DNA of 655 nucleotides from Escherichia coli (GTDB lineage: Bacteria > Pseudomonadota > Gammaproteobacteria > Enterobacterales > Enterobacteriaceae): NCBI RefSeq assembly GCF_003334255.1, contig NZ_QOWU01000202.1; one strand, given 5' to 3'. Under the pieces are notes generated by a model. The model saw nothing but the letters and a program-made list of their open reading frames with translations, had not been told where the DNA came from and searched no databases. How positions within the stretch are numbered: the stretch's first letter is position 1; every line of letters begins with the position of its first letter. A program made the position numbers and the translations under genes. Shown here one piece after another: positions 1 through 527 of this stretch.

Positions 1-300
1 CGCCAGCGCGATGTTGCTGCGCTCGATGCAAAATACTCGAGGGAATTAGCCGATGCGAGAGCTGAAAATGAAACTCTGCGTGCTGATGTTGCTGCTGGTC
101 GTAAGCGCCTGCGGATCAACGCCACCTGCTCCGGTACCGTGCGTGAAGCCACCGGCACCTCCGGCATGGATAATGCAACCGGCCCCCGACTGGCAGACAC
201 CGCTGAACGGGATTATTTCACCCTCAGAGAGCGGTTGATGATGATGCAGAAGCAGCTGGAAGGGGCACAGGAATATATCCGCACTCAGTGCCTGAAATAA
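1..300 (+). CDS. Rz: i-spanin (Rz family, inner-membrane spanin subunit); 5' end lies outside the window; C-terminal 99 codons plus TAA
   Basis: Frame 1 is open from base 1 to TAA 298-300 (hand translation): RQRDVAALDAKYSRELADARAENETLRADVAAGRKRLRINATCSGTVREATGTSGMDNATGPRLADTAERDYFTLRERLMMMQKQLEGAQEYIRTQCLK*. From memory this is near-colinear with the C-terminal part of phage lambda Rz (...RQRDVAALDAKYTKELADAKAENDALRDDVAAGRRRLHIKAVCQSVREATTASGVDNAASPRLADTAERDYFTLRERLITMQKQLEGTQKYINEQCR). The match includes both periplasmic Cys residues (codons 127-129 and 289-291). It has no in-window start codon, so it is absent from the ORF track. Confidence 0.93.
   Translation, partial: RQRDVAALDAKYSRELADARAENETLRADVAAGRKRLRINATCSGTVREATGTSGMDNATGPRLADTAERDYFTLRERLMMMQKQLEGAQEYIRTQCLK
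39..43 (+). promoter_or_regulatory. Shine-Dalgarno-like GAGGG serving the internal Rz1 start
   Basis: GAGGG at 39-43 lies inside the Rz coding frame, with 9 nt of spacing to ATG 53. A weaker GAGAG at 57-61 lies 6 nt before the alternative ATG 68. This is motif-level evidence only. Confidence 0.4.
53..238 (+). CDS. Rz1: o-spanin (Rz1 family, outer-membrane lipoprotein), entirely embedded in the +1 frame of Rz
   Basis: ORF-track entry 53..238: MRELKMKLCVLMLLLVVSACGSTPPAPVPCVKPPAPPAWIMQPAPDWQTPLNGIISPSESG. It has a basic N-terminus, a hydrophobic core and a lipobox V-S-A-C with Cys20 at 110-112. The mature part is 42 residues with 12 prolines and a second Cys at residue 30 (140-142). The C-terminal AWIMQPAPDWQTPLNGIISPSESG is almost identical to lambda Rz1 as I recall it (AWIMQPPPDWQTPLNGIISPSERG). 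GAGGG lies 9 nt upstream of ATG 53. An in-frame ATG at 68 is an alternative start that would still give a workable signal peptide. Confidence 0.93.
   Translation: MRELKMKLCVLMLLLVVSACGSTPPAPVPCVKPPAPPAWIMQPAPDWQTPLNGIISPSESG
101..112 (+). other. Lipobox (V-S-A-C) / signal peptidase II cleavage and lipidation site of Rz1
   Basis: Codons 17-20 of the 53..238 ORF read GTC GTA AGC GCC TGC around this site, giving ...LLLVVSAC. This fits the [LVI][ASTVI][GAS]C lipobox pattern directly after a hydrophobic stretch. The position matches the lipidated Cys20 of lambda Rz1. Confidence 0.8.
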
Positions 301-527
301 GTTTTGCTGATGCGCCGTATCGTCGCAGTATTCCCGCATTAACAGAGACCTCAGCCAGACACTGGACCTCCTGCGCGAGTGTGTGGGGATAATCAAAAAC
401 GATGCACACCGGGCTTTCCACGTTTTCAGGTAACGTGAGCGTTTTCCCGCATGGCCGCCTGTCCGGTGCGGTGGTGGAAGAAACCGGATAAAACAACCAT
501 ATTGTGTAAATATCAATCAAACAAGAC

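Follow-up and report, generated by a model that had tools for sequence, protein, structure and literature searches.

A conserved module downstream of the Rz/Rz1 lysis genes of lambdoid phages is a candidate structured RNA of the late operon

What is the gene-like DNA that follows the lysis gene Rz in lambdoid phages, if it holds no gene? The question is raised by a 655-nt stretch of Escherichia coli contig NZ_QOWU01000202.1 (assembly GCF_003334255.1), hereafter the window, all of which is 100% identical to Escherichia phage PhiR12_3 (PV340552, 30,013–30,667), a lambdoid phage of the 933W/Stx (Shiga toxin) type, and to prophages of several E. coli genomes. A preliminary description, made from the letters alone, placed the Rz stop codon at 298–300 and counted 102/180 G+C in 301–480; both are correct. 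The G+C content falls from 0.57 (311–489) to 0.375 (490–601), the latter being the AT-rich spacer described there, and the PhiR12_3 record carries no annotation over window bases 301–601. From its alignments and synteny, the segment 311–489 is a conserved element that flanks the lambdoid Rz/Rz1 lysis module on its 3′ side and belongs with it. We think it probable, with real room for doubt, that it is a functional structured RNA encoded on the + strand. A conserved structured element would explain why the composition stays gene-like past Rz where no gene follows.

A blastn search of 301–601, of the kind that had been proposed as a check for homologs, matched 433 phage records, and the indels were located in the resulting alignments. 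Bases 311–601 are common to other Sepvirinae, and 311 to about 489 alone is found in numerous further lambdoid phages, among them lambda and HK630 (311–416 by blastn), 1H12, PhiR55_1 and Salmonella S107/ES18. Over 311–489, identity is 72–86% both in these records and in the fetched and aligned loci, which number over 120 and come from lambdoid phages and prophages. The module has sharp edges near 311 and 489, and both flanks are unrelated between lineages. In these alignments, the ends of the gene-like segment of the window (about 311 and 489) coincide nearly exactly with those of the module, and this is its non-random feature; the pattern of open reading frames (ORFs) itself is within chance expectation for DNA of 57% G+C. 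The lambda copy (46,864–47,034) lies between bor and lambdap78 and scores 131 bits with covariance model R1, and the E. coli K-12 copy, in the borD–ybcV spacer, is kept in the decayed prophage DLP12.

In the loci examined, the element is always downstream of Rz and on the Rz strand. It is present in 69 of 80 viral contigs that were chosen solely for encoding a close Rz relative, every time on the + strand relative to Rz. It starts 10 nt past the Rz stop in about 41 of these 69 loci; in the others the start is at approximately +255–284, +443, approximately +740 or +1736 nt (all tallied by eye). Inserts at the Rz/element junction include plus-strand rha/KilA-N genes and minus-strand bor: rha lies between the Rz stop and base 311 in Lyz12581-type Stx phages, and bor is found there in lambda, HK630, 1H12 and the Sakai Sp5 prophage. 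Downstream neighbors also differ, and comprise lambdap78-like genes, small minus-strand genes and different terminases. The element and its PhiR55_1 counterpart are 82% identical, while Rz is only 57–63% identical per codon position and the third positions of R are 52% identical. In several such pairs the identity of the element exceeds the third-position identity of the neighboring genes, which argues for selection rather than hitch-hiking. The Salmonella ES18 type was the sole non-E. coli variant from two extra viral scans, and blastn searches outward from it reached nothing further.

Three observations concern the 5′ junction. In approximately one quarter of the Rz-anchored loci (for example, the loci numbered L247, L254, L262, L268 and L270) an insert of about 255 nt separates Rz from the element, and this is neither bor nor rha. 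The VT2-Sakai phage record (L002, NC_000902) has the element straight after Rz, whereas in the Sp5 prophage (L205, NC_002695.2) bor (ECs_1217) stands between them; these are nominally the same prophage, yet they differ at the Rz/element junction. Loci L237, L239 and L240 have a 12-nt tandem duplication at the start of the element, in the region of the P1 5′ arm described below (GTATCGTCGCC repeated).

Consensus folding of 62 sequences with RNAalifold gave helices P1, P2 and P6, to which RIBOSUM scoring added P0, P3a, P3b, P4 and P5. The full P0–P6 fold obtained with RIBOSUM scoring comprises the helices that had earlier been derived by eye. In the predicted architecture, P0 closes a 5′ domain (P1, P2 and P3a/b) and a variable 3′ hairpin domain (P4 and P5), and hairpin P6 follows. 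The parts of the element are:

311–489, + strand: whole conserved element; covariance-model match at 307–490 (model R1, 166 bits, E 3e-43)
312–314 with 456–458, + strand: predicted closing helix P0, GCG with CGC, enclosing P1–P5; from RNAalifold with RIBOSUM scoring
317–323 with 399–405, + strand: predicted helix P1, GUAUCGU with ACGAUGC; 98% paired, and formed independently in most single-sequence folds
329–339 with 381–391, + strand: predicted helix P2 (11 bp), UAUUCCCGCAU with GUGUGGGGAUA; compensatory change in four pairs
350–354 with 371–375, + strand: predicted helix P3a, CUCAG with CUGCG, enclosing P3b
355–358 with 362–365, + strand: predicted helix P3b, CCAG with CUGG; an A-U pair in the window is C-G in others
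392–398, + strand: unpaired AUCAAAA separating the 3′ arm of P2 from that of P1; columns invariant or at least 90% conserved
410–413 with 446–449, + strand: predicted helix P4, CGGG with CCCG, enclosing P5; both-side changes in three pairs
419–424 with 432–437, + strand: predicted lineage-specific hairpin P5, CACGUU with AACGUG; both-side changes in four pairs
462–467 with 483–488, + strand: predicted hairpin P6, UCCGGU with ACCGGA, with a 15-nt loop; compensatory changes in five of six pairs

The helices vary between lineages in ways that keep them paired. In P2, a C-G pair becomes G-C in the lambda type, and U-A to C-G, C-G to A-U and C-G to U-A changes are seen in the Salmonella type. P6 occurs as CCGGU/ACCGG, CCUGU/ACAGG and CUCGAU/AUCGAG. 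The sequence of P5 is replaced in the Sakai, L086, L182, L121, L129 and Salmonella types, and a hairpin is still found at the same place. Deletions also follow the fold: a clean 10-nt deletion in the Lyz12581 type (L003/L153) removes exactly hairpin P3b, and the L085 type has lost P4 and P5. The invariant stretches are UAAC, AAUCAAAAAC, UCAU and the loop sequence GGAAGAAAC, all single-stranded; GGAAGAAAC (476–484) is carried by the P6 loop. AUCAAAA, part of the motif AAUAAUCAAAAACGAU, and GGAAGAAA are both unpaired in the predicted fold.

The element contains a direct repeat (317–339, GTATCGTCGCAGTATTCCCGCAT; 430–452, GTAACGTGAGCGTTTTCCCGCAT). It places the P2 5′-arm sequence UUCCCGCAU at both 331–339 and 444–452, and the second copy (441–453) can pair with the P2 3′ arm (381–391) instead. 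Strong alternative pairing of this kind is predicted for the Salmonella, L086 and L115 types, whereas lambda, L129 and L085 lack it, and its register is unconserved. Its Salmonella form (GCAAUGA with UCAUUGC) is a perfect helix that exceeds P2 in strength, and these predicted pairings may reflect a two-state fold.

The seven-helix fold was evaluated in a model-based alignment of 98 copies, which is fitted to model R1. Here 96.9% of cells are paired, compared with 91.7% in shuffles and 35–59% in slid-partner controls, and both-side changes occur in 18 of 43 pairs, a number reached by none of 500 shuffles. In an unfitted MAFFT alignment, 97.6% of cells are paired and six pairs show both-side changes, which one of 500 shuffles reached. 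The mean column identity of 82% limits the variation on which these figures draw, and related sequences can exceed shuffle controls, a caveat of the tool. Judged from the aligned sequences, the decisive covariation evidence is carried by the Salmonella ES18-type copies, in which P6 changes from UCCGGU/ACCGGA to CUCGAU/AUCGAG and P5 is replaced by another hairpin, with the unpaired motifs unchanged. When Salmonella and E. coli types were read pair by pair by eye, most of the changed P2 and P6 pairs were compensatory (six, with one C·A exception). G·U pairs (306 cells in 19 pairs) greatly outnumber A·C (45 cells in 8 pairs), which favors the + strand, the strand of Rz and presumably of the late transcript. 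The energy of the consensus fold is −82.5 on the + strand and −70.0 on the − strand.

Several points weigh against a functional + strand RNA. P0 is the weakest helix, with 92.5% of cells paired and no compensatory changes, and none occur in P1, where variation is limited to U-A/U·G and C-G/U·G. The Salmonella P2 contains one or two C·A mismatches that would be G·U on the opposite strand. The fold was derived from the same sequences on which it is scored, and part of the strand bias stems from ascertainment. On the + strand, single-sequence minimum free energies of seven variants have z scores of −1.0 to +0.65, no better than dinucleotide shuffles, and the minus strands of the lambda (z −2.6) and VT2-Sakai (z −2.1) versions fold better. 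Plain RNAalifold gives only 28 pairs at −29.9 kcal/mol, compared with approximately −57 for single sequences. The diversity of the carriers is narrow (Escherichia, Shigella and Salmonella). Finally, the accessible portions of published Hfq studies, using crosslinking and analysis of cDNA (CRAC) in uninduced cells or RNA interaction by ligation and sequencing (RIL-seq), report no RNA at the position of the element. The CRAC negative is limited by the lack of late-operon expression without induction.

The element corresponds to no catalogued RNA in the searches made. Rfam 15, run on the window at E values up to 10, gave two matches at chance level (E 1.4 and 7.8), and at gathering thresholds nothing was found at the element in four related loci, which include the Sakai Sp5, Sakai Sp9 and K-12 DLP12 copies. 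A transfer RNA and transfer-messenger RNA scan of the window found none, and neither strand of the window has promoter-like or terminator-like sites (0 and 0). Hallmarks of an independent small RNA (sRNA) gene are also missing: the sequence 5′ of the element is unconserved, and P6, with its 15-nt loop, is followed by no conserved U run. A full-text search for characteristic sequence strings of the element returned unrelated papers only, and a published CRISPR interference essentiality paper contained nothing on the spacer in which it lies. Hfq CRAC of E. coli O157 Sakai identified the anti-sRNAs AsxR and AgvB and other EcOnc sites (PMC4104026, Table S2); none of the 63 EcOnc Hfq sites, mapped to Sakai coordinates with an offset of about +140, overlaps the element. 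The EcOnc12 CRAC peak (L206, Sakai Sp9, approximately 7663–7712, minus strand) is 25–75 nt to the right of the element (7455–7639), in the 3′ region of ECs_1788, and EcOnc10 and EcOnc11 give nearly the same signal in Sp12 and Sp10. At L098, an identical copy, the T-run terminator of a leftward gene abuts the 3′ boundary of the element.

In the lambda group, one annotation falls inside the element. In HK630, a minus-strand promoter is recorded at 45281–45307, read by eye as TGGACA-15-TACAAT, and its lambda counterpart, by coordinate offset, is at 46,882–46,908 (L241 983–1009), also on the minus strand. This is presumably the bor promoter. By eye, its hexamers lie at the P1/P2 junction and in the P2 internal loop, mostly unpaired parts of the fold, at exactly the positions where lambda departs from the consensus of other lineages. 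Lambda seems to have acquired a leftward promoter here while leaving the helices intact. This promoter was rejected as the cause of the conservation: its hexamers are lambda-specific, the corresponding sequences read by eye being AGGTCT...TACTGC in the window and GGTCAT...TACGGC in 1H12, which carries bor.

Protein-coding explanations were assessed on the reading frames listed in the preliminary description, all of which are present. In frame 1, ATG 310 gives MRRIVAVFPH* (stop 340–342); frame 2 is open over 311–433 (CAVSSQYSRINRDLSQTLDLLRECVGIIKNDAHRAFHVFR*), with G or C at the third position of 22 of its first 31 codons; and in frame 3, ATG 402 gives MHTGLSTFSGNVSVFPHGRLSGAVVEETG* (stop 489–491). 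On the minus strand, a 98-residue ORF (224..520) starts at TTG, overlaps Rz by 77 nt and has no Shine–Dalgarno sequence (25 nt upstream, CAGAATTCACACAGCAGCGTCTTGT, read by eye); a second, longer ORF (46..516, 156 residues) was absent from that description. The three + strand frames had been taken as a possible gene broken by two frameshifts. There is some basis for this, as VT2-Sakai has an uninterrupted 86-codon ORF, orf48 (NP_050547.1), on the same DNA, from which the window differs by a 2-nt indel, and the Sakai ORFs alone match PHROG 6954 (E 1e-50 to 1e-53), with related database entries named ‘hypothetical protein’. The window would then hold a frameshifted pseudogene of the orf48/ECs_1218/PHROG 6954 family, intact in phages of the VT2-Sakai type. 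However, the open frame is unconserved. It is closed in the window, has one to four stops in the L086, L153, L121, L129 and lambda types, and is open in the L182 and L085 types solely through different indel combinations. Even with the 2-nt indel corrected, the window has an in-frame TGA at 436–438 (read by eye). ATG 402 is ATA in about one third of homologs, and the ATG-310 mini-ORF is lost in lambda (GTG CGA TGA, read by eye). Among 59 distinct homologs, variable sites fall 35/38/40 by codon phase in the element and 33/25/53 in the adjacent Rz of the same loci; the substitution periodicity suggested as a check is thus absent. In the same homologs, only one of 17 distinct indel events has a length divisible by three (the other 16 measure 1, 2, 10, 14 or 16 nt), and each of the six frames carries stops in some lineage. 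No ORF or frame of the window matches Pfam, and no window ORF matches PHROGs. A search of 5.8 billion proteins returned 47 clusters of 48–147 residues, from Escherichia and Shigella only, which mostly cover 33–62% of the query at 75–90% local identity. To judge from these partial matches, they look like conserved non-coding DNA read in shifting frames. A decayed + strand gene is for these reasons very unlikely. PHROG 6954 is defined by the orf48-type ORF and labeled ‘Rz-like spanin’, a label that is unsupported since Rz and Rz1 sit upstream; orf48, ECs_1218 and this family are probably annotation artifacts that have spread between records. The ORFs so labeled lie over the element at L002 2288–2548 (orf48, overlapping the Rz stop) and L205 11476–11679. 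A minus-strand moron gene in the slot used by bor scarcely deserves credence. The window leaves both minus-strand ORFs uninterrupted, and a moron on that strand lies nearby in lambda, but such a gene would have a TTG start, no Shine–Dalgarno sequence, an antisense overlap with Rz of at least 77 nt, no promoter-like site and no Pfam or PHROG match. Both ORFs are broken in the nearest relatives, and all three minus frames contain stops in VT2-Sakai and Lyz12581, so that, at the level of the alignments, interrupted homologs effectively refute the proposal. The bor genes of relatives are a separate insertion between Rz and the element and not its homolog, in agreement with the earlier remark that no frame resembles Bor. 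Coding readings of 311–489 are rejected on these comparisons, and the ORFs would be by-products of a G+C-rich structured sequence. Of the three options left open at the outset, a decayed moron and micro-proteins lose support and an untranslated RNA gains it.

Non-coding alternatives were weighed against the same alignments. A DNA-level element, whether a strand-specific single-stranded fold (for instance, a priming or recombination signal), a set of protein-binding sites or a ‘linker’ promoting recombination between modules, would suit the mosaic breakpoints exactly at both ends, the moron insertions at the 5′ junction, the long invariant stretches in unpaired regions and the unremarkable RNA folding energies. 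In DNA hairpins, too, G·T is the least disruptive mismatch. But the compensatory changes seen in 18 helix pairs would be needless in a linker or in duplex binding sites, a duplex cruciform would be disrupted by the many G·T positions, at which its partner strand has A·C, and the element is more similar in several pairs than the third positions of its neighbors. For this part of lambda, neither a single-stranded DNA stage nor an enzyme to match is known to us, and we consider a DNA-level role rather unlikely. A function of the minus strand, as an RNA leader or promoter region for leftward morons expressed in the lysogen, such as bor, is unlikely. It would draw on the HK630/lambda promoter, the greater stability of the lambda and Sakai minus strands relative to shuffles, the Salmonella P2 mismatches that become G·U on that strand, and the adjoining minus-strand Hfq peaks EcOnc10–12. 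However, the promoter hexamers are lambda-specific with no promoter-like site in the window, many carriers, the window included, have no minus-strand gene on either side, the G·U excess points to the + strand, and the EcOnc12 peak is outside the element. Distinctly unlikely is conserved DNA without function, young and horizontally spread, whose apparent helices arise from relatedness and G+C content. The narrow host range, the 82% mean column identity, the z scores near 0 and the ability of relatedness to beat shuffle controls are compatible with it. Against this, slid-partner controls, in which relatedness is kept, pair at 35–59% and not 96.9%; whole hairpins are swapped for new hairpins in independent lineages; most changed Salmonella P2 and P6 pairs are compensatory by eye; and the element is retained in the decayed DLP12 and in 69 of 80 Rz-anchored loci.

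With the functional + strand RNA preferred, the data support, at the level of a predicted fold, a new and uncatalogued structured RNA of lambdoid late operons. Lambdoid late transcripts from pR′ read through S, R and Rz into the packaging genes, and it is from this established knowledge of the late operon that we infer transcription of the + strand of the element. As the window has neither promoter nor terminator, the simplest reading is a domain embedded in the late mRNA; the element would then act as a folded RNA domain of approximately 180 nt within the Q-dependent late transcript. The invariant loops speak for specific recognition rather than a mere hairpin, and the invariant unpaired stretches suggest recognition by a shared, probably host, factor. 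Our single best guess on function, itself doubtful, is a cis-acting processing or stability module that would cap the lysis-gene segment of the late mRNA and/or dock a host RNA-binding protein; as a second guess, the RNA would be released and act in trans. It is tempting to speculate, and this broader idea is put forward tentatively, that the element is a regulatory RNA domain common to lambda, Stx phages and their relatives, with invariant recognition loops and possibly two alternative folds, which may, through a bound host factor or an effect on the transcript, coordinate expression of the lysis and packaging genes. It would then represent a new class of late-operon riboregulator.

The flanks of the element in the window are organized as follows:

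1–300, + strand: 3′ end of Rz (i-spanin), stop at 298–300, outside the element; PhiR12_3 annotation
53–238, + strand: Rz1, embedded within Rz; PhiR12_3 annotation
301–310, + strand: junction between the Rz stop and the element; moron insertion point in relatives
490–601: AT-rich spacer, 37.5% G+C, outside the element; conserved among 933W-like phages (Sepvirinae) only
from 602 (ATG), + strand: DNA-packaging (small terminase-like) gene, outside the element

Within the AT-rich spacer, an imperfect hairpin at approximately 528–560 (GCTGTG...CACAGC) is directly 5′ of the packaging gene. The spacer could be a leader or a packaging-related site.

The element marks the boundary between lysis and packaging genes and a hot spot of moron insertion. 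If it is a functional RNA, lambda itself (46,864–47,034) and the Shiga toxin phages would carry a conserved functional RNA that is unannotated, and one that is easily mutated to study how the 26-kb antiterminated late transcript is partitioned, processed or sensed. Removal of the ‘hypothetical protein’ and ‘Rz-like spanin’ annotations over the element is probably warranted. A separate matter concerns public databases. Lambda 45,900–48,488 is present at 99.6–100% identity in contigs of unrelated organisms (loci L012–L083, e.g. L020, L023, L027, L047, L054, L060, L064 and L079), including Cohnella, Flavobacterium, Pedobacter, Polaromonas, Aeromicrobium, Shewanella and Neobacillus, and in the Arcanobacterium ‘plasmid unnamed1’ (CP136411.1, 3566 bp) and the Brevibacillus ‘plasmid pContig2’ (3552 bp). 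By their near-identity to lambda, these look like contamination with lambda control DNA, and most matches of the broad genome-contig scan are of this kind.

Among the closest known systems is the bor–lambdap78 intergenic region of lambda, as annotated in HK629 and HK630, which is homologous DNA (131 bits). Its sole annotation is the minus-strand promoter, whereas the conserved object described here is the whole 180-nt module, found in phages without bor as well. In close relatives the same DNA is annotated as protein (orf48/ECs_1218/PHROG 6954), and the frames of the window do not match that PHROG. Identity with the Bor moron was rejected: no frame has a Pfam match, and bor is separate DNA in lambda, HK630, 1H12 and Sakai Sp5. 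The lambdoid-prophage non-coding RNAs AsxR/AgvB and the other EcOnc RNAs (PMC4104026), StxS, Pas, LPR1/PreS, LPR2 and 6S, several of which are at moron sites, offer a further comparison. The Pas sRNAs of pathogenic E. coli prophages (bioRxiv 10.64898/2026.05.13.724894) are at positions other than the element, as are lambda LPR1/PreS, LPR2 and 6S in the accessible part of their description (bioRxiv 10.1101/2024.10.31.621285). The element was accordingly rejected as a published prophage sRNA (AsxR/AgvB, EcOnc, Pas, LPR1/PreS, LPR2 or 6S), since all of these map elsewhere, and the window has no Rfam match to known prophage sRNAs. Their sites are the pR′ moron site, ea10–ral and a structural-gene operon, and the element follows Rz; they are short (50–90 nt), with terminator-type 3′ ends in those described, whereas the element is approximately 180 nt and has no terminator.

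Structured RNAs that act in cis within phage or operon transcripts are another comparison. The put RNAs of phage HK022 consist of two stem-loops, span approximately 70 nt just downstream of early promoters and act on RNA polymerase, and intercistronic stabilizers of mRNA are usually simple hairpins. The element resembles both in being a predicted sense-strand structured RNA in a long phage or operon transcript, with no promoter or terminator of its own. Compared with put by description only, it differs in its position after the lysis genes, its seven predicted helices, its length of 180 nt and its invariant unpaired stretches.

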